Source: an archaeon
GTDB lineage: Archaea; Nanobdellota; Nanobdellia; Pacearchaeales; GW2011-AR1
Length of the DNA stretch: 64,000 bases
Assembly (NCBI GenBank): GCA_018697035.1
Contig: JABHSE010000004.1
Location: 63,122-127,121 of the forward strand
Reading direction: 5' to 3'
Shown here: positions 5,057-55,326 of the stretch, in pieces
Numbering within the stretch: the first letter of the stretch is position 1
Layout: every line of letters starts with the position of its first letter
Notes under the pieces: generated by a model
What the model was told of the DNA's origin: nothing
The model's database searches: none
Seen by the model: only the letters and a program-made list of their open reading frames with translations
Program-made: the position numbers and the translations under genes

Positions 5057-6253
5057 ATGGACAATCTATGCATACGTTGTAAGGGAAAAGGTCTATGTGG
5101 TCACTCATGCAGAATCTTAGCCAAATTCAAAGACAACGCCCCGAAACCAAAACTTCACTTCTCAGGAAAATCAGCCCCAGAACTTTTCGTCGGAAGAATA
5201 GGCTATCCCTACATCAACGCCGGAATTCTAACACCCCAAGACAACGACAATATATCAAACTTCCCAAGTGCCGAAGAATGGTCAAAACAAAACTTCTCCA
5301 TATCAAACGTCTTAAGACTCCGAGGTCAACTAATCTACGGCAAAGCCCAAACTCACATAAAAATCAACGACAAAATAAAACAAGTCACCCAAGAACTAGC
5401 TTTATCTTCAAAACCAGTCTCAACCGAAATCTTCCTAAAGAAAAAACCAACCATGCAATTCACAGTAGATAAAGTCTTCCAACCCATGACAAATCCAGCA
5501 CCATTAGTAAAAGCAATCCTAGAAGAAAATCCCTTCGTTCCAAAAAAAGTCGACTATCTAATCAACGACACCGACGCAAAATCAGTAGACGTAATAAACG
5601 AACTCTATAAATCAAACACAAAAATAGATCATCTCCAAAAATTATTATCAATCGGATTATTAGGAAAAAAAGCCGCAAGACGAATGGTTCCAACGAGATG
5701 GAGCATAACAGCAACAGACGACACAATCTCAAAAGAACACCTCAAAAAAATCAGATACTTGCCCCACACAAACCAAATAACATTATACTCAGGCAACTTC
5801 CTCGGCAACTACATCGAAGCCCTAATCCTCCCCGGCCCATTCGCATTCGAAGCAATCGAAGCCTGGCAAGCAGGCGCAACATATTCCGGAACCGAAACAG
5901 AAATTTCCCAAGACCACGAAGGCTTTAACGGAAGAAAAAAATATGCATTCAACGTAACCGGCGGCTACTACGCAATGCGTCTCCCCTTAACAGAACACCT
6001 AATAAAAATAAAACGTCAAGCCTCAGTCTTAATGTTCAGAGAAATCCGCCCAGAATACTACGCCCCCCTTGGAGTCGGAATTGTAAGAGAAACAGCAAAA
6101 CGAACATTTCAGGAAAAACCAAAATATTTCGACACAATCAAAGATGCATTACAAGACATTAGCGAAAGAATAGAGACTCCAATAGAAACCATAAAACAAA
6201 AATCCTGGCTTCTAAATAATTACGGCAAACAAAAATCAATCTTCGACTTCTAA
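5057..6253 (+). CDS. archaeal Nre-family DNA repair protein (DUF650/DUF651-like)
   Basis: N-terminal C.RCKGKGLCGHSC cysteine cluster and a length near 400 aa, typical of archaeal NreA/NreB as I recall the family. Confidence 0.6.
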   Translation: MDNLCIRCKGKGLCGHSCRILAKFKDNAPKPKLHFSGKSAPELFVGRIGYPYINAGILTPQDNDNISNFPSAEEWSKQNFSISNVLRLRGQLIYGKAQTHIKINDKIKQVTQELALSSKPVSTEIFLKKKPTMQFTVDKVFQPMTNPAPLVKAILEENPFVPKKVDYLINDTDAKSVDVINELYKSNTKIDHLQKLLSIGLLGKKAARRMVPTRWSITATDDTISKEHLKKIRYLPHTNQITLYSGNFLGNYIEALILPGPFAFEAIEAWQAGATYSGTETEISQDHEGFNGRKKYAFNVTGGYYAMRLPLTEHLIKIKRQASVLMFREIRPEYYAPLGVGIVRETAKRTFQEKPKYFDTIKDALQDISERIETPIETIKQKSWLLNNYGKQKSIFDF

Positions 6254-7689: not shown

Positions 7690-8361
7690 TCAACGAGCAA
7701 AATATTTAGATATCATAGCAGTCTTCCTCGGAAACCGCCTCTTCAAATAAAACCCATATCCAAGCCCCACAATCAATCCGCCAAGATGTGCAGTATTACC
7801 AATCGGCAATCCAAGTCCAAGCGACAAAGCCCAAAGCCCAAACATTAAGAAACCCATCGCAGCCCACATCGGCATCGGAATCACAAAGAAAACCAAAACA
7901 GGAAGCCGCGGAGTCAAAACCGCAAGCAAGCCACCTAAAGCAAATATCGCACCACTCGCACCGACGGCATAAACATTCAAATCACTACCAGTCGCCAAAG
8001 CAATCAAAACAAAAAACAACCCAGCAAAAAGACCCCCAATAAAATACAAAGAAATAAACCGCTTCTTCCCAATCAACTTCTCAACAAAACTCCCAATAAA
8101 CATAAGGGAAACCATATTCACAAACAAATGCCCAATCCCAGCGTGCATAAACATACTCGTCAAAAAAGTCCAAACACCCCTCCCCTCCAAAATCATAGCA
8201 GGCATCAAAGCAATCCAAGAAACAATAAGGTCATCGCCAAAAAATCCCATCAAAATAAGAACACCAATAAACACGGCAACGTTTGCCGCAATCAAAGCAC
8301 TAGTATACGACAGATTCGAATCAAATCCTCCTCTTCTACGAGTCCCAATAGAATGATTCAT
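7690..8361 (-). CDS. rhomboid family intramembrane serine protease
   Basis: GASGAIFALGG (GxSG) and downstream HLGGLIVG histidine motif in a 6-TM protein. Confidence 0.85.
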   Translation of the reverse strand: MNHSIGTRRRGGFDSNLSYTSALIAANVAVFIGVLILMGFFGDDLIVSWIALMPAMILEGRGVWTFLTSMFMHAGIGHLFVNMVSLMFIGSFVEKLIGKKRFISLYFIGGLFAGLFFVLIALATGSDLNVYAVGASGAIFALGGLLAVLTPRLPVLVFFVIPMPMWAAMGFLMFGLWALSLGLGLPIGNTAHLGGLIVGLGYGFYLKRRFPRKTAMISKYFAR

Positions 8362-9254
8362 TATTTTCTCCCAGCAATTTTCTTTTTCAATTTACTAGCC
8401 AGACTAACCTTCTTTTTAACCACCTTCTTAACCTTCTTCTTGCCCGATGAAGCTGGAACCTTAGTTCCCTTTTTAGAGGGTATACTTTTACGTGTAACAG
8501 TAACCTTCTTCTTGACCTTCTTCACGACTTTCTTAACCTTCTTAACCTTCTTCTCAACCTTCTTCTTAACCTTCTTCACGACTTTCCCAGCAGCTTTCGC
8601 CTTAGCCTCCGCCACCTTCTTCCTTGCCGCAGCACGAATAATCTTCATCAATTCCTTCCTCTTAGCCTCCTCTTTATCCAACTTATTAGAAGCCCTCTTC
8701 CTAGCTATCTTCTTTTTCTTCTGAACAATTTCAAGCTCCTTTCTAATCATATCTACATTCCTATTTGTCCGAGTAATCCAGGTCTTAGCCTCACGTATCG
8801 GTCGACTATTATCACTCAATTCATAAATATCCGCACACTCTTCACAACTAAACCCATTCTCTAATGCCTTCTCCTCACTAACTTCAATATCACAGCTCTT
8901 ACAAACATAAAACCGCTTCGTTTCCCGACTATTCAAAACCCCCTCAAAATTAGCAATCTTCTTCATCAAAGAATTCTCCAACTTCATCAGACACTTCTCT
9001 GTATTCAATGTCCAATAATAAATATACCAACCCTTCCGCTTATCCTTCTTCCTAATAAACGAAACCAGATTATCAGCCGACAACTTATACAAAATATTCC
9101 GAACCTGATTGATCGTCAACTCCATCTTCTTCGCAATCAAAAACTCATTAACATCTTTCTTCTTAAACAAAATCTCCGCAATTCTCCCAGTATTCTCTCC
9201 GGCCATCTCTTCAATTAAATCGTGCAAAAGTTTAACCTGTAACATTACCATCAA
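8361..9254 (-). CDS. tfe: transcription factor E (TFE alpha) with long Lys-rich C-terminal tail
   Basis: N-terminal winged helix (INQVRNILYKL...), Zn-ribbon CKSC...CEEC, then a KKV-repeat tail. Confidence 0.8.
   Translation of the reverse strand: MMVMLQVKLLHDLIEEMAGENTGRIAEILFKKKDVNEFLIAKKMELTINQVRNILYKLSADNLVSFIRKKDKRKGWYIYYWTLNTEKCLMKLENSLMKKIANFEGVLNSRETKRFYVCKSCDIEVSEEKALENGFSCEECADIYELSDNSRPIREAKTWITRTNRNVDMIRKELEIVQKKKKIARKRASNKLDKEEAKRKELMKIIRAAARKKVAEAKAKAAGKVVKKVKKKVEKKVKKVKKVVKKVKKKVTVTRKSIPSKKGTKVPASSGKKKVKKVVKKKVSLASKLKKKIAGRK
8440..8495 (-). repeat. F1 in-frame repeat copy within the tfe tail
   Basis: ttgcccgatgaagctggaaccttagttccctttttagagggtatacttttacgtgt, translated as TRKSIPSKKGTKVPASSGK. 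Confidence 0.85.
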
Positions 9255-18131: not shown

Positions 18132-18292
18132 GCTCCGTTAGTCTAGTGGCCAAGGATGCCGCCCTCTCAAAGAGGTGGAAAGCCCTCGTCGGTGAGACAA
18201 CGGCTTTATGTTCGCTTGAACAACCACTTGAATCTCTCCTGAGATTCTTTTGGAGAACGGCGGTGACCCGGGTTCAAATCCCGGACGGAGCG
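18132..18292 (+). tRNA. tRNA-Glu(CUC) with a roughly 88-nt intron at the canonical anticodon-loop position
   Basis: Hand fold: acceptor GCTCCGT/ACGGAGC, D arm GTCT-AGTGGCCAA-GGAT, anticodon stem CCGCC/GGCGG, loop CTCTCA.., T arm CCGGG-TTCAAAT-CCCGG. The intron is about 18170-18257, with BHB-like pairing CTCT/GGAG. Confidence 0.8.
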
Positions 18293-18429: not shown

Positions 18430-20667
18430 TTATTCCTCATCCCCAAACTCCCCAACAATCTCCAAAATCTTCTCTCCATACTTCATCAACTTCTCAGGCC
18501 CAATCCCCGAAACCTTCATCAACTCCTCAGCGTCCTTAGGCATCCTCTCCGCAATCTCATCAATAGTAGCATTAGACAAAACAACAAACGCTGAAACCCC
18601 ACGCTCACTACTAACAACCGCCCTCCAGCTCTTCAATTCCCCAACCAAGCCTTCATCAACATCAGCAGCCTTACCCCCAACCCCCAACTCCAAACCCCCA
18701 ACCAGTCTTCTCATCTCCGCAGTAATATAATAAGTCGCCTTCTTAGTATGCGTCACAATCAACTCTTCCTTCGCCCGAGAAACCGCAACATAAAACAACC
18801 TCCTCTCCTCTTCCTCCCTGTCATAATCATCCATCTTCACCATCTCGACCGCAGGGTGATCCGTCGCCTTACACGGAAAATTGGACTCATTGGCCCCAAT
18901 CACAAAAACCTTTTTCGCCTCCAGCCCCTTAATCGCATGAACAGTGGCAAGAGTAACACCTTCCACATTATCACCATTGACTTTCTTCCCCGCCGACTCA
19001 TCTGCCCGAACAACATGAACAATCCCCCTCGCTGTCATAGCCCTAGACAACTCTAACAATATCTTATTAGTCCGAGCCAAAACAAAAATATTATTCAACC
19101 CAACATCAGAATCCTCAATCTCCCTCAAAACAAAATCACGTTCCGCATCCTCATTAGAAAAATCCTCAATCCTAATCTTCGCCTCACCTTCAAGATGTCC
19201 CTCTAAATCAGGCAACTTCATATCCCGAATAGCATGGTTCATAAAATCAACCACTCCCCCAAAACTCCGATAATTCTTCTTCAAATGAATAATCTCAATA
19301 CCTTTTTCGTTAGGTCCGCGTCCATCCGCGTCCATCCGCGGTTCATTTTTTCCCTTTCCAAAATCATCCTCAAAATTAAGAATATAATTTACATCACTCC
19401 CCCTCCATCCAAAAATAGACTGCCGTGGATCACCAACTGCAAAAAGATTGCCCAATAAAGACGGCACATCAGTGCCCATTTTAGAGGGTACACTATTACG
19501 TGTGGCTTCTAAAAGCAACCCAATCAACTCAATCTGCATCGCATTAACATCCTGATACTCATCAACCAAAACATGCTCAAGCCTAGGTATACCATCCGGA
19601 TTATCTTTAAAAAATTTAATAGCGTCAATAATCTGGTCACTATAATCCCGCAACCCCTGCGTCTCCATATGCTCCTTCAAATATTTCGTAATTCGGTAAA
19701 TCCTCTCCGCATTAACCCGTTCTTTCCCGTCAACATCCCGAGTCCAATCATAATCAGTCTTACCACTCACTTTAAAATAATCCATCACAGCAAAACAATC
19801 ATTCATAAAAGCATTAGACAACTGACTCGCCGTTCGAAACTTCTTCTGTCCCGCACTAAAATACTCATCAACAATCTGCTCCATATCCAACCCCAGCGTC
19901 GCCAAAGCCATATTCATCGCCAAAATCTTATCACTATAACTCTGCACCCGAACCTGCCTACCATAAATCTTAGCACCGTGCCTCTGCAAAATCCTCTCAC
20001 AAAACGAATTAAAAGTGTGAACCTTAACACCAACAACACCCAACTCCCCCAACCTCCTCTCCATCTCCATCCTTGCCTTCCGCGTAAAAGTAATAGCCAA
20101 AATCTTCGAGGCATCAACCCCTCGATGCTTAACCAAAAACTCAATCCTCTTAGTCAAAACTGTCGTCTTCCCACTTCCAGCTCCAGCAACACAAAGCAAA
20201 TTTTTAGCATCCGAAACAATTGCCTTCTTCTGCTCATCATTATACATCTCCAAAAAATCCCCATACTTCTCAAACCTAACCCTATCATCCCCATTAACTT
20301 TGCTCTCCCCAAAATCAACACGATTCCCCAACCTTTTCGCCTCAAGCGTCGGACGCGTAATCTCATTCCTCCCACGAATAGTCAAACTCATAACCTTAAC
20401 AAACCGATTATAATCACTCTGAATCATCTCAATCATTCCATTCGAAATCAACCTATCAATCTCTCCCGCAACCTTACCTCTATCCCAACTCAAACTGTCA
20501 AAATTATCCAACTCATCCAACCGACTTTTACTAATCGACTTGTTAGAATAATCCCCAGTCAAAAAATCAATCAACAAATTCCGTCCCACCTGAAACGGCA
20601 ACTCCATCAAGGCCCTCAATATATGTGTGTATTTCAAATCCTCTTCCATCACGCAAAAAACAAACAC
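18430..20667 (-). CDS. UvrD/PcrA-family DNA helicase with N-terminal wHTH-like and C-terminal HhH/HRDC-like regions (start may be MEEDLKY at 20649)
   Basis: Walker A AGAGSGKTTVL, VDEYQDVN, GDPRQSIFGWRGS, VTLATVHAIKGLE. Confidence 0.85.
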   Translation of the reverse strand: MFVFCVMEEDLKYTHILRALMELPFQVGRNLLIDFLTGDYSNKSISKSRLDELDNFDSLSWDRGKVAGEIDRLISNGMIEMIQSDYNRFVKVMSLTIRGRNEITRPTLEAKRLGNRVDFGESKVNGDDRVRFEKYGDFLEMYNDEQKKAIVSDAKNLLCVAGAGSGKTTVLTKRIEFLVKHRGVDASKILAITFTRKARMEMERRLGELGVVGVKVHTFNSFCERILQRHGAKIYGRQVRVQSYSDKILAMNMALATLGLDMEQIVDEYFSAGQKKFRTASQLSNAFMNDCFAVMDYFKVSGKTDYDWTRDVDGKERVNAERIYRITKYLKEHMETQGLRDYSDQIIDAIKFFKDNPDGIPRLEHVLVDEYQDVNAMQIELIGLLLEATRNSVPSKMGTDVPSLLGNLFAVGDPRQSIFGWRGSDVNYILNFEDDFGKGKNEPRMDADGRGPNEKGIEIIHLKKNYRSFGGVVDFMNHAIRDMKLPDLEGHLEGEAKIRIEDFSNEDAERDFVLREIEDSDVGLNNIFVLARTNKILLELSRAMTARGIVHVVRADESAGKKVNGDNVEGVTLATVHAIKGLEAKKVFVIGANESNFPCKATDHPAVEMVKMDDYDREEEERRLFYVAVSRAKEELIVTHTKKATYYITAEMRRLVGGLELGVGGKAADVDEGLVGELKSWRAVVSSERGVSAFVVLSNATIDEIAERMPKDAEELMKVSGIGPEKLMKYGEKILEIVGEFGDEE
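18679..18704 (-). repeat. F2 G-rich in-frame repeat copy in the helicase gene
   Basis: aacccccaactccaaacccccaacca is 25 of 26 nt identical to 6689-6714 and is read as LVGGLELGV. Confidence 0.8.
19448..19503 (-). repeat. F1 in-frame repeat copy in the helicase gene
   Basis: ttgcccaataaagacggcacatcagtgcccattttagagggtacactattacgtgt encodes TRNSVPSKMGTDVPSLLG. It sits between the VDEYQD box and NLFAVGDPRQS. Confidence 0.85.
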
Positions 20668-23219: not shown

Positions 23220-23288
23220 TTTATTAACCTGCCCATAATAACAATAATCTAAAAAAATAAACTAGGAATAAATTCCTAATAATATAAC

Positions 23289-24329
23289 CTAAGGATAAGC
23301 CATAGCAGCAACATAGTCATCCACAGGAGCAGGTTCAGCCATAGCAGGAGCAACATAGTCATCCACAGGAGCAGGTTCAGCCATAGCAGGAGCAACAGGC
23401 TCAATCATAGGAATAACAGGTTCAACCACAGGAGCAACATAGTCATCCATAACAGGTTCAACCACAGGAACATCCGTCTGAATATTAGCTCCCATAAGAT
23501 TTATCACTTGACTCTCAAGTTGACTAATTCGACTCTCAAGTTGACTAATTCTAATTTCCCAGTCACTAACAGAATCACTATTACCGTCAATAGCGGGATT
23601 ATACATCGCCACATTTCCGGTAGCAACATCATCCAAAGTCCCAGATTCAAAAACAGAATTTTTCCCCGCCTGAATTTTCTCATTAACTTCATTACTCAAA
23701 CTCAAAAAAGTTTCATAAGATATCTCTAAATTCCCAGTCTTTTCTATATCAGCACCACTTGATTGAAGGTTCTTACGAGCACGTGCATATATCTGCTCAA
23801 CACGATCCTTATGATTATTAAACTCACTTTGAATTTCGGCAATCTTTTTTAAGCCATTACTGGAACCATTATCAATCTTACCAGGTTTAATGCCTTCAAT
23901 GATCGTCATAACCTCAGCAATGAGTTTCTCATATTTCTTTTGCATTTTCATATAAGCTTCACTATCCTCATTAACTAATATCTCAGCTTCAGACAACATT
24001 TTCTCTGCCCTACCTAAGACTTGCTTAACTTTTTTCTCTTTATTAAAAGTAAACAAAGACTGTAAGCGATCTGCATTGTTTTCAAAAAATCCGATTTTCC
24101 TAGCTTCACCTATGTCACCAATCTCCCCAGGGACAACATAATCAGCAACAGGAGCAACATCATCCATAGCAACAGGAGCAACGTCACCCACAGCAGGCTC
24201 AACATAATCAGCAACAGGAGGAACATAGTTATCCATAGCAACAGGAGCAACATCATCCACAGCTACAACAAGACCAGAAACTCCAAGCATTAAAATCATC
24301 CCCAAAAACAAATTAATTATTTTATTCAT
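23289..24329 (-). CDS. secreted repeat protein, paralog of 24475..25569
   Basis: Signal peptide, shared core ARKIGFFE..DRL...FTFNKEKK, and APV/DDYV repeats at both ends. Confidence 0.6.
   Translation of the reverse strand: MNKIINLFLGMILMLGVSGLVVAVDDVAPVAMDNYVPPVADYVEPAVGDVAPVAMDDVAPVADYVVPGEIGDIGEARKIGFFENNADRLQSLFTFNKEKKVKQVLGRAEKMLSEAEILVNEDSEAYMKMQKKYEKLIAEVMTIIEGIKPGKIDNGSSNGLKKIAEIQSEFNNHKDRVEQIYARARKNLQSSGADIEKTGNLEISYETFLSLSNEVNEKIQAGKNSVFESGTLDDVATGNVAMYNPAIDGNSDSVSDWEIRISQLESRISQLESQVINLMGANIQTDVPVVEPVMDDYVAPVVEPVIPMIEPVAPAMAEPAPVDDYVAPAMAEPAPVDDYVAAMAYP
23301..23395. repeat. tandem repeat with a unit of about 42 bp inside 23289..24329
   Basis: catagcaggagcaacatagtcatccacaggagcaggttcagc is repeated and encodes the duplicated APAMAEPAPVDDYVA. 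Confidence 0.8.
23510..23551. repeat. perfect 21-bp tandem duplication inside 23289..24329
   Basis: gactctcaagttgactaattc x2, encoding RISQLES x2. Confidence 0.9.
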
Positions 24330-32145: not shown

Positions 32146-32749
32146 GAGTTCTAACTTCCATCATTTCACCATGTCCAGGCACGATAAAATCAGCCAACTC
32201 CAAAATCTTCCGCCGACTCTCCTCATAAGCATCCATATCAGCAGTAATCATCTCAATTTCCCTTTCTTCCAAATCAGTCAACCGAGGAACCCTGATAGCA
32301 TCACCAGCAACAACCACAACACCTTTTTCAGTATCAACGACAACGGACATCATATCAAGGGTATGACCAGGCGTAAAAATAACTCGAACATCCCTTGCTA
32401 TCTCAGGATTATCAATAAGATTTCCTCTCTCCAAAAAACCTTTATTCAAGGTCTGAACCTGCCCAGGATATTCGCCTCCAGCAAACTTCAACATAATCTT
32501 TGCCCCGTTAAACAAATGAACATTCGTAGTATGATCAATATGGGTATGGGTAAGAATAATAATATCTATATCTTCAGGAGAAAGACCTTCTCCCTTTAGG
32601 GCATCTAAGAGCTTCTTTTCATTAGCAAAAGATCCAGGATCAACCAGAATATTTTTATCACTTTTGATTAAAGTCGAAGTAGAGCCTATCAAAAACCCTC
32701 CTTCAGTCGCCTCATGCTTCCCATTAACCAAAACCTTCACTTCCGCCAA
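32114..32749 (-). CDS. MBL-fold metallo-hydrolase
   Basis: THTHIDH (HxHxDH) motif and downstream TPGHT. Confidence 0.8.
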   Translation of the reverse strand: MAEVKVLVNGKHEATEGGFLIGSTSTLIKSDKNILVDPGSFANEKKLLDALKGEGLSPEDIDIIILTHTHIDHTTNVHLFNGAKIMLKFAGGEYPGQVQTLNKGFLERGNLIDNPEIARDVRVIFTPGHTLDMMSVVVDTEKGVVVVAGDAIRVPRLTDLEEREIEMITADMDAYEESRRKILELADFIVPGHGEMMEVRTHEKICSDILC

Positions 32750-34347
32750 ACCCTCATCTCTCGCAATTTATTCAAATCATTCTTATACATCTCTCTCAAA
32801 TCATCAATCCCAAAAAAATTCATAATAACCCTATCAAACCCAGGACCCCAAGCCAAAACAGGAACATGCTTCCCAAACATCGGAATCGTCACCTCAGGCC
32901 GAAACATCCCAGCTCCACCAAGTTCCAACCATTTTTGTTTCCCCTCGTGCCAAACATCAATCTCCAATGACGGCTCGGTATACGCAAAATAAGCCGGTCT
33001 CCACCTAAGTTTCTCATAACCCATCTTCCCAAAAAACTGCTTCAAATAACCAAGCAGCTGAACAAAATTCGCATTCTCATCTACAACAATCCCCTCAGTC
33101 TGATTAAATTCGAAACCATGCGACCAATCCACAGTCTCATTCCTAAAACATTTCCCAAGTGCAAAATACTTCGCCGGAAACTCTCCACTCTTCCCAATCT
33201 CCATAATCTTCCGAGCAGACAAACAAGTCGTATGCGTTCTAAGCAAAACTTTCTTAGCATCTTCCTCATCCCACTTCTGCTGCCATCCCTTACTTCCATC
33301 AACCCCACCCTCATGCGCCTTAGCAACATTCTCCAAAACCTTCTTTACTCCCAACTCCGAACTCCCAACTCCTGACTTCGACCTCAAATTTTTGAGGTAG
33401 AACGTATCCTGCATCTCACGAACCGGATGATCCTGCGCCGTAAATAAAGAATCAAAAACCCAAAACCCACTCTCAACCATATTCCCCTTCATCTCCTTAA
33501 ATCCCATCTCCAACCAAATCGACTTAGCATAATCCGTAGCCTGATTCACAAAATGCCTCTTCCCACCATACAACCTTGGCACAGGCGCATTCAAATCATA
33601 ACGCCGAAACTTCTTTCCCTTCCAACTCGTCCCCTTCAACATCTTTGGCGTCAAAGCCTCCAACATCTCCCCACCCAAGTCCATCCCATAAATCTTCAAA
33701 CCCAAATCACTCAACTTCACATTAACAATCTTCTCCTCAATAACCTCAACAATATCTTTCCTTTTCTTCAAATTTGCCAAAGCCAACAGATCTAAGTCCT
33801 TAACCTCATCTAAAGCAACAGGCAACTTCTCTATGAAAACCTCCTCAATACTCTTCTTTGAAACCTCACTACCGCCCGACAATTTCAATTTCCCCTTATC
33901 AATCTCAACCAAACCCTTCCCTTTCAAAACACCAAGCGCAACCTTCGCCTCATTCTCATTCAAACCACAAACATTCCTAATCTCACCAATCGGAATAACT
34001 TTGCCCGATGAAGCCGGAACTTCTTCAGAAGTTCCCAATTTAGAGGGTACACTATTACGTGCATCAGATAACTTATTGAGCAATGCCCGCTCAGGCAATT
34101 CCTTCTTTAAATAATTAATCCCCAAAATTCCCAAATCAACCCTCTTCACCTCATTAGTCTCAGAAACAACCAAACCCTTCTTTTCCAACAACCCAACAGC
34201 CCGCAACACAGTGGTTTTATCTAAATTACTTTTTTCAGCAACAACCCCAACTTCTAAATCTTCCTTGCTTAACTTAGGCAAAACATCGCGCTCCATAGGC
34301 GACAAAGACTCAATAATCAACTTCTCATCCATATCAACCCCAATCAT
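32737..34347 (-). CDS. pheS: phenylalanine--tRNA ligase alpha subunit (archaeal type)
   Basis: N-terminal tandem wHTH repeats and a class II core (FRRY.., LLRTHTT, GKCFRNE, GAGMFRPEV). Confidence 0.9.
   Translation of the reverse strand: MIGVDMDEKLIIESLSPMERDVLPKLSKEDLEVGVVAEKSNLDKTTVLRAVGLLEKKGLVVSETNEVKRVDLGILGINYLKKELPERALLNKLSDARNSVPSKLGTSEEVPASSGKVIPIGEIRNVCGLNENEAKVALGVLKGKGLVEIDKGKLKLSGGSEVSKKSIEEVFIEKLPVALDEVKDLDLLALANLKKRKDIVEVIEEKIVNVKLSDLGLKIYGMDLGGEMLEALTPKMLKGTSWKGKKFRRYDLNAPVPRLYGGKRHFVNQATDYAKSIWLEMGFKEMKGNMVESGFWVFDSLFTAQDHPVREMQDTFYLKNLRSKSGVGSSELGVKKVLENVAKAHEGGVDGSKGWQQKWDEEDAKKVLLRTHTTCLSARKIMEIGKSGEFPAKYFALGKCFRNETVDWSHGFEFNQTEGIVVDENANFVQLLGYLKQFFGKMGYEKLRWRPAYFAYTEPSLEIDVWHEGKQKWLELGGAGMFRPEVTIPMFGKHVPVLAWGPGFDRVIMNFFGIDDLREMYKNDLNKLREMRVWRK
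33348..33372 (-). repeat. F2-related GGAGTTGGG tandem motif in pheS
   Basis: ctcccaactccgaactcccaactcc encodes GVGSSELGV. Confidence 0.55.
34001..34062 (-). repeat. F1 in-frame repeat copy in pheS
   Basis: ttgcccgatgaagccggaacttcttcagaagttcccaatttagagggtacactattacgtgc encodes ARNSVPSKLGTSEEVPASSGK. Confidence 0.9.
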
Positions 34348-36624: not shown

Positions 36625-37290
36625 TTAGAACACAACACAATCTCGAATCTCACTCGAACTCATCCCAACCGTCTCCCCAAACGCCTTCCGCCCCTTCTCA
36701 TCAACAACACCATCCTTATCCAAAACCAAACTAGCAATCTTAATAGAACATCCAACTTTCCGACAAACCTTCACATTCTGAATAATCTTAGCAATCCTCA
36801 TAGCTTTTTCTTTCCCACATAAAGAAGCAATATCTCCAAAATCAACAACAATACTCACACCTTTGCCCGATGAAGATGGAACTTTCCCAGAAGTTCCCAA
36901 TTTAGAGGGTACACTATTACGTGTCGCCGCCATCTTCGCAACAACATGATTCAACCCCGAATCCCTCTGCTTCAAATTATCAAACTTAGTCAAAGCCTCA
37001 ACCGAAACCAGATAATCAATCTTCAAACTCTCAATCACTCTCCGATTAAAAGCATCATCCCCACCAAAAATCCCAACCTTACCCTTAAATCCTTTATCTC
37101 TAAGCGACGCAATAATACTCCTAGCCATCTTTTCATTGGAACGAATCAAAAATCCATCACAACCGGGGTCAGCAGAGTCATGCCCAATTGGGGCCATATC
37201 ATTCAAATCATCCTTACTAGAAACCTCTCTAAGATAAACAGAATCCTTACAACGAAACAAATTCAAATCTTTCATAACAACCCAAACCAA
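36625..37290 (-). CDS. rnp3: RNase P protein component 3 (Rpp30 homolog)
   Basis: TIM-barrel-like pattern with DSGLNHVVAKMAA...GVSIVVDF...IQNVKVCRKVGCSIKIAS, colinear with archaeal Rpp30. Confidence 0.7.
   Translation of the reverse strand: MVWVVMKDLNLFRCKDSVYLREVSSKDDLNDMAPIGHDSADPGCDGFLIRSNEKMARSIIASLRDKGFKGKVGIFGGDDAFNRRVIESLKIDYLVSVEALTKFDNLKQRDSGLNHVVAKMAATRNSVPSKLGTSGKVPSSSGKGVSIVVDFGDIASLCGKEKAMRIAKIIQNVKVCRKVGCSIKIASLVLDKDGVVDEKGRKAFGETVGMSSSEIRDCVVF
36863..36924 (-). repeat. F1 in-frame repeat copy in rnp3
   Basis: ttgcccgatgaagatggaactttcccagaagttcccaatttagagggtacactattacgtgt encodes TRNSVPSKLGTSGKVPSSSGK. About 56 of 62 nt are identical to the pheS copy by manual alignment. Confidence 0.9.
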
Positions 37291-44987: not shown

Positions 44988-44994
44988 CTAATAT

Positions 44995-45240
44995 AAAAAA
45001 ACCCAATCATCGCAAACCTTTTACTTCACCAGAAGTACCTACTGGGTAAACCAAACCAAAATACGTTTAAAAAAACCCAATCATCGCAAACCTTTTACTT
45101 CACCAGAAGTACCTACTGGGTAAACCAAACCAAAATACGTTTAAAAGAATCCCATCGCAAACCTTTTACTTCACCAGAAGTACCTACTGGGTAAACCAAA
45201 CCAAAATACGTTTAAAAGAATCCCATCGCAAACCTTTTAA
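44995..45240. repeat. 3.3 tandem copies of a 74/71-bp unit immediately upstream of rpo7
   Basis: The phase marker cgcaaaccttttac recurs at 45011, 45085, 45156 and 45227. The last, partial unit ends in aaccttttaaacc, about 20 nt before the ATG. Confidence 0.9.
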
Positions 45241-48205: not shown

Positions 48206-49366
48206 TTATTTTTTATTTTTTTCCAAAATCTCTTTTTGAGAAAACATCTCCTCAACCCCACTCCCCATATCCCGAACCTTAAACTCACCCTTAGCAACCT
48301 CATCCGCCCCAACAAAAACAACCTTCCCAATCCCTTTAGAATCAGCATACTCCAATCCCTTCCCAATCGCCTTATCCATCAACAACACCGTCCGAATTCC
48401 CTCTCCCCTCAACCTCTCCGCCAAATCAACCGCCTCCACATCACAACCAAGCGACAAAACCAAAACATCAACAGCACTCCCTTCAATTTTCGACAACAAA
48501 CTAATCGGCTCAAACCCAAGCGCAATACCAAAAGCCTGAACATCATCAACCATATAAGCCCCACCTCCAGCAAGAGAAACCCCCAACTCATCACTCCAAA
48601 TCTCAACCACAGTCCCATTATAATACGAAAGTCCCCTAGCCAAAAAAGGCCGAAACTCCGGCGTCACACCATACATCTTACAAAGCTTCTTCAACTCTTT
48701 AATTTCACCATAAAACTTATACTTCTCAAAATCCTTCCCAGTGAAAATCTTCAACACCCTCTCGCAACCAATGCTCTTCAAATTATCAGCAACATCCTTC
48801 ACCGACAACTTATCCAACTTATCAATCTCACGAATCGCCTGATCTCTAACTTTCTCATCAACTCCCTCGCTAACCAGAATCTCATTAATCAACCTACGAT
48901 TATTAAAGTAAATCTTAACCGGCATCTCAAGCTTCTCAAAAATACCAGACATCATCTTCAAACACTCAGCCTCATCCTTCATGCTCGAACCAACAACATC
49001 CGCATCCGCCTGAGTAAACTCCCGACTCCTCCCTTTCCGAATCGCCTCATCTCGAAAAACACTTCCAATCTGAAACCTCTTATACGGCAACTTCTGATTC
49101 TTCGCCAACCTCTTCAACTGAAACGTAAACTCAAACCTCAACGCCAACTTCCGCTTTCCCCTATCACTCAAACGGAAAACATCCCGAACAGCCTCGTCGT
49201 TAGCATTATCCCCAACAACAAAATCCTCTCTCTCAATAATCGGGCTCTCCGCAATCTCAAAACCATAAGTCTCAAACTCTCTCTGAATAATCCCCCGAAT
49301 CACCGCACGCTTCGCCGCCTCAGCCCCGACAAATTCATTAAACCCCTTAACTATTCTCGAACTCAT
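48206..49366 (-). CDS. HisRS paralog 1 (class II HisRS fold plus anticodon-binding domain; motif 3 Arg not conserved)
   Basis: FRDEAIRKGRSREFTQADADVVG (motif 2), ARGLSYYNG, GGGAY, but GIALGFEPI where HisRS normally has G.GleR. Confidence 0.8.
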   Translation of the reverse strand: MSSRIVKGFNEFVGAEAAKRAVIRGIIQREFETYGFEIAESPIIEREDFVVGDNANDEAVRDVFRLSDRGKRKLALRFEFTFQLKRLAKNQKLPYKRFQIGSVFRDEAIRKGRSREFTQADADVVGSSMKDEAECLKMMSGIFEKLEMPVKIYFNNRRLINEILVSEGVDEKVRDQAIREIDKLDKLSVKDVADNLKSIGCERVLKIFTGKDFEKYKFYGEIKELKKLCKMYGVTPEFRPFLARGLSYYNGTVVEIWSDELGVSLAGGGAYMVDDVQAFGIALGFEPISLLSKIEGSAVDVLVLSLGCDVEAVDLAERLRGEGIRTVLLMDKAIGKGLEYADSKGIGKVVFVGADEVAKGEFKVRDMGSGVEEMFSQKEILEKNKK

Positions 49367-51361: not shown

Positions 51362-51685
51362 TTAAGCCGTCTCTTCAGGAGTCTCAGCTTCAACCGCAGG
51401 TGCAGCCTCAACCGGAGCCTCTTCAGATTCAACCTCAGCTGGTGCTTCTTCAGCAACAGGAGCTTCCGCTTCAACAGCAGGGGCTTCCGCAACCTCAGGA
51501 ACAGCTTCTTCAGCTACAGGAGCTTCAACTTCAGCAGGGGCTTCTTCTACAGGAGCCTCAACCTCAGGAGCAGCTTCTTCTTCAGCAGCAGGTTCCTCAG
51601 CAGCTTCTTCTACAGGAGATTCCACAGATTCCACAACAGGTGCGTCCTCAATAGTCTCCTCAGGAGTTACGTTTTCTTCTTCCAT
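51362..51685 (-). CDS. low-complexity acidic E/A/P/V-rich protein (uncertain)
   Basis: 107-aa ORF. The region is open in several frames on both strands, so coding status is unclear. Confidence 0.3.
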   Translation of the reverse strand: MEEENVTPEETIEDAPVVESVESPVEEAAEEPAAEEEAAPEVEAPVEEAPAEVEAPVAEEAVPEVAEAPAVEAEAPVAEEAPAEVESEEAPVEAAPAVEAETPEETA

Positions 51686-54059: not shown

Positions 54060-55241
54060 CTAATGATAATGAGGATGCTCAGAAGTCTCTGCACATTTAT
54101 CATTCACAACATCCATCTCCAAAACACTCTCGTCCCCACTAACCATATCCTTCACCTTAAACACCCCACTCTCAACTTCCTGTTTCCCAACAAAAACCAC
54201 CTTCCCAAACTCATACGCATTAGCATACCCAAGCGCCTTACTAGGTTTACCATAATTCACAGAAACAATCTTACCCTGCTCCCTAAGTTTTTGAGCCAAT
54301 TTAATAGCAACATCATCTTCTCCCAAAGACACAATCAAAAATTTATCTTGAACACTCTTGAGCTTAGCAATCAAAAACAACCTATCCAATCCCATAGAAA
54401 TTCCCGTACACTGAACGTCGTTGAAAATATAACTTCCACCTCCAGTAATCGTTTCCTTAATACCCTCACCCTTAATCTCAAACACAGAACCGTTATAATA
54501 ACTAAGTCCCCTAATCGTCGTCGGTGAAAAAACAATCCGAAGCCCATACTTCTTACAATAATTAATCAACTCAAGCACTTCTTTATACGACTCAAATTTT
54601 TCAAAGTAATCTTCACCCTCATTAAACCTATCAATAATTCCCTCAACCCCAAAAGGCCTAAGGTTATCCCGCAACTCATCCTCAGGCAATTTATCAAACT
54701 TATCAATCTCACGCATAACCTGGTCCCTGTCTTTATCATCCACACCAAAGTCTTCCAAGATTTCATTCATAAGTTTACGGTTATTAATCAGCACAGTCGG
54801 AGTAATTCCAATACCCCTCAAAATCTCAGACACAACCACAAGAGTCTCAGCCTCGTCCTTAACAGTAGAACCCACAGTATCAATATCACACTGCACAAAC
54901 TGCCTAACCCGATTCCCCGAAACTGGCTCATCTCTAAAGACCGGTCCAACAGCAAACCTCTTGTAAGGAAGTTTCTTTCCCTGCATCAATCGCTTTAAAG
55001 GAAAAGTCATTTCATATCTAAGCGCCAAGTCCCTATCTCCCTTATCCTTCAATCTAAAAATATCCGAAACCGCTTCATCATCAGTATTATCTCCCTGAAC
55101 AAACTGCCTACTTTCAATTATAGGAGTGTCCACAGGAGAATACCCATACCTAGTAAAAGTATCAACAATAATTTTCCTTATAGCCTCTCGCTTAATCGCA
55201 TCTTCGCCTTCATAATCCTTAAATCCCTTAACAGTATCCAT
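54060..55241 (-). CDS. hisS: histidine--tRNA ligase (paralog 2; start trimmed to MDTVKGF)
   Basis: Motif 2 FRDEPVSGNRVRQFVQCDIDTVG, IRGLSYYNG, GGGSY, motif 3 GISMGLDRL, and an anticodon-binding domain. The track N-terminal extension overlaps a tRNA. Confidence 0.85.
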   Translation of the reverse strand: MDTVKGFKDYEGEDAIKREAIRKIIVDTFTRYGYSPVDTPIIESRQFVQGDNTDDEAVSDIFRLKDKGDRDLALRYEMTFPLKRLMQGKKLPYKRFAVGPVFRDEPVSGNRVRQFVQCDIDTVGSTVKDEAETLVVVSEILRGIGITPTVLINNRKLMNEILEDFGVDDKDRDQVMREIDKFDKLPEDELRDNLRPFGVEGIIDRFNEGEDYFEKFESYKEVLELINYCKKYGLRIVFSPTTIRGLSYYNGSVFEIKGEGIKETITGGGSYIFNDVQCTGISMGLDRLFLIAKLKSVQDKFLIVSLGEDDVAIKLAQKLREQGKIVSVNYGKPSKALGYANAYEFGKVVFVGKQEVESGVFKVKDMVSGDESVLEMDVVNDKCAETSEHPHYH

Positions 55242-55253
55242 CTTGTCCTCCAA

Positions 55254-55326
55254 GGCGGAAGGCGGGAATCGAACCCACATTATACGGACCACAACCATAT
55301 GTACTAACCATTATACTACAACCGCC
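55254..55326 (-). tRNA. tRNA-His(GUG) copy 2, with encoded G-1, 12 nt upstream of hisS
   Basis: Reverse complement: G-GCGGTTG-TA-GTAT-AATGGTTA-GTAC-A-TATGG-TTGTGGT-CCGTA-TAAT-GTGGG-TTCGATT-CCCGC-CTTCCGC-C. Confidence 0.8.

Follow-up and report, generated by a model that had tools for sequence, protein, structure and literature searches.

Short DNA repeats that enter protein-coding genes in frame and are translated with them represent a form of selfish DNA in essential genes that is known mainly from Rickettsia, where the Rickettsia palindromic elements (RPEs) RPE-1 to RPE-10 were described (Ogata et al., 2000; summarised in PMC10969869, PMC1779305, PMC3184786). In-frame cases have also been reported for transposable elements of the miniature inverted-repeat kind (MITEs), namely Nezha, ERIC and BOX (PMC10969869, PMC3184786). 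A third kind, known as palindromic amphipathic repeat coding elements (PARCELs), is described as consisting of intragenic repeats in tandem within surface proteins (PMC2996958). The archaeal entries of the MITE review are classical MITEs only, and a literature search gave no report of such an in-frame element in DPANN or other archaea. Here we consider a repeat named F1 in a 64,000-nt stretch (the window) of an archaeal contig of the order Pacearchaeales (JABHSE010000004.1, positions 63,122 to 127,121), where it interrupts the gene for PheS, the alpha subunit of phenylalanine--tRNA ligase (PheRS). F1 is probably a small non-autonomous mobile DNA that is translated as a disordered linker in the manner of the RPEs, and it shows the same lifestyle in ultra-small archaea at half the size and with different ends.

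The likeness to the RPEs extends over several features. Both are interspersed palindromic repeats of reduced genomes found in frame in unrelated housekeeping genes and in one reading frame, and in both the extra peptide is tolerated by the host fold, proliferation is lineage-specific and no transposase is known. Even PheRS has been hit in both, the PheT subunit by RPE-7 in Rickettsia (PMC1779305) and PheS as well as PheT by F1. The hosts, however, are archaeal in one case (as seen from the PheS model NF003210, TFE and RNase P component 3) and Alphaproteobacteria of the Rickettsiales in the other, and F1 measures 51-60 nt compared to about 100-150 bp for the RPEs, so that size and host set the two apart; a relation in sequence is not expected. 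In addition, F1 adjoins AA(R) and in most genomes lies nearly always within genes, RPEs being abundant in intergenic DNA too. By analogy, then, the RPE is the closest counterpart of F1, and F1 is best placed outside the RPE family. PARCELs are likewise palindromic coding repeats inside genes of minimal-genome microbes, but F1 occurs as single copies, rarely as dimers, in cytoplasmic housekeeping enzymes, a contrast that holds for PARCELs as they are described (PMC2996958).

The insert in PheS and its empty sites

The PheS gene (32737-34347, minus strand) encodes 536 aa, and its open reading frame (ORF) matches the NCBIfam model NF003210 with 486 bits (cut-off 350). A first-pass annotation had placed the repeat at 34001-34062 on the plus strand, where it is indeed present; within the PheS ORF this stretch reads on the minus strand as ARNSVPSKLGTSEEVPASSGK. 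Comparison with empty orthologs sets the ends of the inserted DNA proper at 34003-34062, which amounts to 60 nt or 20 codons, translated in frame from the minus strand as ARNSVPSKLGTSEEVPASSG with the host Lys next. The two remaining bases, TT at 34001-34002, are part of the host Lys codon AAA (34000-34002, minus strand), which stands directly 3' of the insert on the sense strand and belongs to the target rather than to the element, because it is already present in empty PheS orthologs, as AAG or AAA, and in empty ArgS orthologs.

The element consists of a hairpin between two arms. The central hairpin (34016-34035) has a perfect 8-bp stem (GGAACTTC/GAAGTTCC) and a 4-nt loop, and is the long 20-nt variant, most copies of the family having a 14-nt one. 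On the plus strand the left arm (34003-34015) reads GCCCGATGAAGCC, and the right arm (34036-34062) carries the near-invariant 23-mer TTTAGAGGGTACACTATTACGTG and a terminal Y. Together the arms form an outer helix with G.U pairs and tandem G.A, on the plus (antisense) strand only. Terminal inverted repeats are absent, since neither of the ends GCCCGATG... and ...TTACGTGY is the inverted copy of the other, and the sole symmetry is the internal imperfect palindrome.

Had archaeal PheS proteins commonly possessed an equivalent linker, the stretch would not need to be an insertion at all. PheS orthologs were compared over 30 species of the genus (60-81% amino-acid identity), and in 28 of them the site is empty, with ..LLNKLxE-K-x-x-IPIGEI running uninterrupted and no linker of any kind. 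The repeat is found at this site only in the genome studied here (G000; 0.81 Mb in four contigs, 84% complete) and in G042, G-numbers denoting genomes of the genus. The F1 site of ArgS is likewise empty in 26 of 29 orthologs. At the DNA level, the filled PheS of G042 differs from the empty one of G005 as GAG|54 nt|AAG, with exactly 54 nt extra and no base repeated at either junction, and the 60-nt version of G000 sits at the same codon boundary. Judged from these alignments, the PheS stretch is a true insertion. Empty sites in related species, which the first-pass annotation had proposed as a means of fixing the ends and any target duplication, thus gave the ends and no duplication.

The same picture emerged from the flanks of 29 sites, in which no repeat was found. 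Sense-strand AA stands directly 3' of the insert in 28 of the 29 (AAG 16, AAA 9, AAT 4), the single exception being a dimer junction; no flank motif beyond this AA is visible among 22 independent sites. The element begins with A or G. Neither orphan F1 ends nor ends flanking genes were found in G000.

In the protein the insert corresponds to residues 99-118 of 536. An AlphaFold model, of which only the N-terminal 220 residues were used (predicted local distance difference test, pLDDT, 65-86; the catalytic half is poor), shows it as coil, with pLDDT below 50 at model residues 99-115, flanked by helices 85-98 and 120-127, which belong to two N-terminal helical modules modelled with confidence. 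This agrees with the earlier placement of the repeat between winged helix-turn-helix repeats, and as modelled the insert is a floppy translated spacer between the two modules. Tryptic peptides predicted within its translation are NSVPSK and LGTSEEVPASSGK.

The F1 family and the level of its conservation

F1 is not confined to PheS. The 23-nt core occurs four times in the window (0 in 100 shuffles), and a repeat search groups 34001-34062 with stretches at 8440, 19448 and 36863. All four copies are on the plus strand inside long minus-strand ORFs. The sister copies, each read on the minus strand, are 54 nt at 8442-8495 in the Lys-rich tail of TFE alpha (ORF 8361-9254), 54 nt at 19450-19503 in a UvrD-type helicase (ORF 18430-20667), where the stem is compensated to GGCAC/GTGCC, and 60 nt at 36865-36924 in a weak homolog of RNase P component 3 (Rpp30; ORF 36625-37290).

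In the whole genome 11 copies were detected by pattern search and 12 by covariance model. Every one of them is part of an ORF; they use one frame and lie opposite the folding strand. The hosts are ABCE1, topoisomerase I, ribosomal protein L31e, TFE, UvrD, PheS, Rpp30, a GTPase, a zinc-ribbon protein and Kae1, names that come from reading the translations, with profile checks for PheS, UvrD, TFE and Rpp30 only; the remaining two host genes carry degenerate in-frame copies (C3:257170 and C1:131102). With a model built from 17 copies (R1), the family was detected in 24 genomes among the 49 of the genus, at 1 to 12 copies per genome, and 139 genomes representing 83 other genera of the order gave no match. 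On this sequence evidence F1 is a member of a spreading repeat family restricted to one genus of small-genome archaea.

The genic copies follow strict rules. Of 36 copies collected, 30 are stop-free, have a length that is a multiple of three and use the same frame, and these 30 are the genic ones. Although three of the six frames are open, all 12 copies of G000 are open in the same one, a single hydrophilic frame with the peptide pattern (A/T)RNSVPSK-x-GT..VP-SSSG; of the other sense-strand frames one contains TAA and one gives a hydrophobic peptide. The other six copies make up a subfamily of G046 that contains stops in frame, is 55-57 nt long and is located outside long ORFs. Some of these stop-containing copies are embedded in larger local repeats of approximately 190-285 nt with 82-84% identity (L075:1353-1631, L080:1411-1693, L058:447-630 and L082:1432-1616). 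A further subfamily, ARGIPSK, is 3 nt shorter. Head-to-tail dimers were seen at three loci with one common junction, sense GGTC|GCACG, the dimer loci being listed as L049 (G049:C9:1690-1799), L058, L073 and L087; their arrangement would fit a second copy entering at the TT next to a resident one, or a dimer moving as a unit.

In the family alignment 100% of the cells of the central stem are paired, and each of its five pairs has changed on both sides. This level of covariation was reached in none of 500 shuffles, and slid controls were approximately 50% paired. The stem changes alter the peptide, from GT..VP to GA..AP, AT..VA, RT..VR or GN..FP. In the arms, variability is 0.044 at third codon positions as against 0.079 at first and 0.057 at second positions; third positions are thus not more variable than the others, and conservation therefore acts at the level of DNA and not of the peptide.

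Mobility and repeatedly occupied sites

The patchy presence, the empty sites, the non-coding subfamily, the decayed copies and the DNA-level conservation fit a non-autonomous mobile DNA that is filtered by translation. Copies insert into coding genes between two codons, directly 5' of AA(R), and leave no target-site duplication. They persist only where the single hydrophilic stop-free frame lands in a surface loop or interdomain linker, and the insert is therefore translated as a floppy spacer. The sequence of the element might be maintained because mobilisation requires an intact copy, while those that have been resident for longer would decay. The mobilising activity would presumably act in trans and recognise the hairpin. 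As to the route, our guess is single-stranded DNA handled by enzymes like the HUH/Y1 ones (IS200/IS605, REP/RAYT-type), with seamless excision giving rise to empty sites; the lack of duplication, the hairpin and the fixed dinucleotide at one end resemble hairpin-guided single-strand transposition, and this resemblance is one of analogy.

In structure F1 indeed comes close to such elements. REP and REPIN sequences with their RAYT transposases, and the PATEs, which are IS200/IS605 derivatives, are also short, form an imperfect hairpin, have conserved terminal bases and lack both terminal inverted repeats and target duplication; a fixed short sequence stands beside one of their ends, as TT on the folding strand (sense AA) stands at the left end of F1 in 28 of 29 sites. 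REPs and PATEs are, however, extragenic, and the target preference of F1 comprises 2-3 nt as against 4-5 nt. The enzyme is a different matter. No Y1 gene was found in G000, and in the relatives that possess one (12 of 48) the element ends are unrelated to F1 apart from one 9-mer, so that F1 shows only the structural half of what defines an IS200/REP-type element. Nine of these 12 relatives carry F1, compared to 14 of the 36 relatives without Y1. The relatives' IS200-like elements were rejected as parents of F1, the best match of model R1 beside tnpA having an E of 0.19 and the common 9-mer being present at one locus; a 556-nt insertion sequence of G046 was rejected as well, its ends being unrelated. 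This insertion sequence is IS200-like, contains a Y1 transposase gene only and is present in two 99%-identical copies (L077:1402-1957 and L080:4863-5418). G042 has 10 Y1 matches.

With MITEs, F1 shares small size, multiple copies, non-autonomy and the possibility of in-frame fusion with host ORFs. It differs from them in having neither terminal inverted repeats nor target duplication, in a size at the bottom of the MITE range and in being far stricter as to frame and orientation. A cognate autonomous element with matching ends was not found in G000 among six transposase families.

Several observations weigh against a mobile origin as outlined above. Genes for Y1, TnpB, RVT_1, IS110 and rve were not found in G000, which is 84% complete, and of the DDE_Tnp_1 family only a broken remnant is present, so that none of the six families searched supplies an intact transposase; nor do the insertion-sequence ends of the relatives' Y1 elements resemble F1. 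Without terminal inverted repeats or target duplication F1 is not a classical MITE either. G000 has zero intergenic copies, while random insertion predicts more intergenic copies than tolerated in-frame ones. Neither this absence of intergenic copies nor the strand of the host genes fits simple random insertion: 37 of 38 F1 host genes are on the G-rich strand, which holds approximately 74% of all coding length. Strand-specific activity of the IS200/REP kind, its orientation tied to replication, would be one source of such a bias, but housekeeping genes are expected to be biased anyway. The public runs listed for the stretch are DNA runs of marine metagenomes and include no RNA; in four of them the contigs end at F1 copies and none bridges an empty PheS site, and within this scope no presence/absence polymorphism was seen at the strain level. 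Finally, the same nucleotide position is filled in non-sister species, twice in PheS and three times in ArgS, and the arms of same-site copies are 2.5 to 13 times less diverged than their flanks, which selection on resident copies would also explain.

The repeatedly filled sites deserve closer attention. In a PheS tree from which the insert had been excluded, G000 groups with the empty G015 as its sister (support 100/99), and G042 falls in a distant clade among empty species; G054 carries a copy at a different position of PheS. In ArgS, an insert is present at one codon boundary in G003, G044 and G054, and the ArgS of G054 is only 49% identical to that of G003. Divergence of flanks and arms amounts to 15% and 5% for G002/G050 (PheT), 25% and 10% for G003/G044 (ArgS), 34% and 10% for G044/G054 (ArgS), and 35% and 2.6% for G000/G042 (PheS); a same-site pair in UvrD was left out of this comparison, as the wrong dimer member had been taken. 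In G000/G042 PheS 52% of flanking third positions differ as against 1 of 39 arm bases, which rules out common descent with neutral decay. Two possibilities are left, namely independent insertion at one and the same nucleotide, or selection acting on the resident arms. Given the diverged flanks, the near-identical arms and the sister relation of G000 to an empty species, the two inserts were counted as putative independent insertions. The one pair that is likely orthologous by descent, G002/G050, has an unusual stem in common and 2 changes in 54 as against 15% in the flanks; this reduced divergence is suggestive but marginal (P about 0.01-0.06). Relative to the G003 protein, the ArgS proteins of the genus fall into two divergent groups of approximately 58-77% and 39-49% identity (loci L090-L119), and the two groups suggest possible gene replacement within the genus.

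It is conceivable, though doubtful, that F1 is more than neutral junk, namely a homing-type mini-element that re-enters the same position (PheS GAN^AAR in two species, ArgS AGT^AAR in three) or else an old insert kept by selection on its antisense strand. If so, this would be a site-specific, frame-aware, hairpin-guided archaeal insertion system with no recognisable enzyme. The missing target duplication, the constancy of the AA target and the return to identical sites are pointers to an unknown insertion chemistry.

A translated mobile DNA of this kind would matter in several respects. It suggests that, where genomes are reduced and intergenic space is scarce, small mobile DNAs are pushed into the surface loops of proteins. 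F1-type inserts inflate apparent protein divergence, and F1 copies break short-read assemblies, public contigs ending at them. The inserts are also natural markers of permissive sites in PheRS, ArgRS, ABCE1 and Kae1.

Alternative explanations and other features of the window

The alternative that survives best is that resident copies function as nucleic acid, the antisense strand supplying a structured signal, as RNA or DNA (for instance a regulatory antisense transcript or a hairpin bound by a protein), that is selected in situ, with the common sites being old retained inserts. Folding as RNA favours the plus (antisense) strand over the sense strand by 4-5.5 kcal/mol (-23, -21.1 and -17.6 versus -19.1, -15.6 and -13.4 kcal/mol; z to -5.0 versus -2.8), because two constant G.U pairs and the tandem G.A of the outer helix work on the antisense strand only. 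The covariation of all five stem pairs and the arms of same-site copies, far less diverged than the flanks even in the probably orthologous G002/G050 (2/54 versus 15%), would also be expected of a functional structure. On the other hand, most orthologs lack the insert, half of the genomes of the genus give no match and degenerate copies exist. DNA folding shows no difference between the strands, and Rfam gave only tRNAs over the window and nothing for F1 at gathering score. The G002/G050 contrast is marginal, as stated above. Covariation, too, may have another source, since quasipalindrome correction by template switching could also yield it. Inner-stem wobble pairs were rejected as an indicator of strand, since single mismatches occur equally on either strand, and strand specificity resides in the outer helix only. 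A kink-turn, L7Ae or box C/D identity was rejected as well: the minimum-energy fold puts the tandem G.A into a 2x2 loop that is symmetric, which accounts better for the conserved GA..GA, and there is no 3-nt bulge and no D box. Taken together, we regard a nucleic-acid function of the resident copies as rather unlikely.

A second alternative concerns the PheS copy alone. The first-pass annotation had noted its likeness to the Rpp30 copy 2.8 kb away (36863-36924) and suggested recent spread or gene conversion. The identity was reproduced, 56 of 62 positions matching, and both copies have the long 20-nt hairpin variant. The differences had been said to cluster in the loop and stem top, which holds for three of the six; of the rest, two are immediately 5' of the stem and the sixth is the final base. 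Spread of the family was borne out, but the likeness of these two copies is nothing special. The GTPase copy, 192 kb away, is equally close to that of PheS (56/62) and closer in the hairpin (19/20 versus 17/20 for Rpp30), and the arms of the PheS copy match those of the G042 PheS copy at 41 of 42 positions versus 39 of 42 for Rpp30. Moreover, the PheS copy alone starts with G (an Ala codon) among the ten intact G000 copies tabulated, the Rpp30 copy and the other eight starting with A; the table leaves out the two degenerate copies of this genome, which also begin with G (GTA, GTG), and most copies in other species start with G as well. In pairwise comparison the mean identity of arms is 0.88 within G000 versus 0.89 between species, and local gene conversion is therefore not supported. 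That the PheS sequence stems from recent conversion by, or a duplicative link with, the Rpp30 copy is thus distinctly improbable.

The encoded peptide could be the functional part, a protein-level module such as a linear motif or a modification or docking site placed in many housekeeping proteins. It is always in one frame, is rich in S, T, P, G and K and lies on surface loops. This is nevertheless very improbable, given that third codon positions are as conserved as the others, that stem covariation freely alters 4 to 6 residues, that a non-coding subfamily exists and that most orthologs lack the insert. Archaeal introns removed by the bulge-helix-bulge (BHB) splicing endonuclease can be short and can spread between genes, and one tRNA match in the window spans 161 nt versus 71 positions of its model, suggesting an intron, but that F1 is an untranslated mini-intron cut from mRNA in this way can hardly be entertained, as genic copies are stop-free multiples of three in one frame and non-genic ones are not, a constraint that splicing does not need, as a BHB requires pairing between the start of the intron and the beginning of the 3' exon, a stretch that is variable among hosts apart from AA, and as no BHB motif occurs in the sense-strand folds. 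Among all these readings we retain that of a small mobile DNA translated as a linker.

The remaining observations concern the genome and the window at large. Gene strands were assigned by a codon model on positions 1 and 2 only, because the extreme GC skew at third codon positions collapses a self-trained model onto one strand. This skew is approximately +0.66 to +0.88 in minus-strand genes (such as 32737-34347) versus -0.78 to +0.19 in plus-strand genes (such as 5057-6253). Over whole contigs GC skew amounts to -0.30 to -0.39 on three and to +0.40 on the remaining one, far above usual replication skew, and the same bias was seen in F1 host genes at 26 of 27 loci of other species. The tRNA match mentioned above, made with Rfam at 18132-18292 on the plus strand, is just upstream of the F1-bearing UvrD gene, and judging by its length this tRNA gene probably has a long intron. 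An intergenic region at 44994-45212 contains three tandem copies of a 74-nt unit (100%, 100% and 86% identity). Short periodic coding repeats are present at 23284-24287 (18-24 nt; ORF 23289-24329) and at 51430-51606 (15-21 nt; ORF 51362-51685). Finally, 48251-48906 and 54129-54787 are approximately 71% identical at a distance of 5.9 kb, and the respective ORFs (48206-49366 and 54060-55298) are probably paralogous genes.

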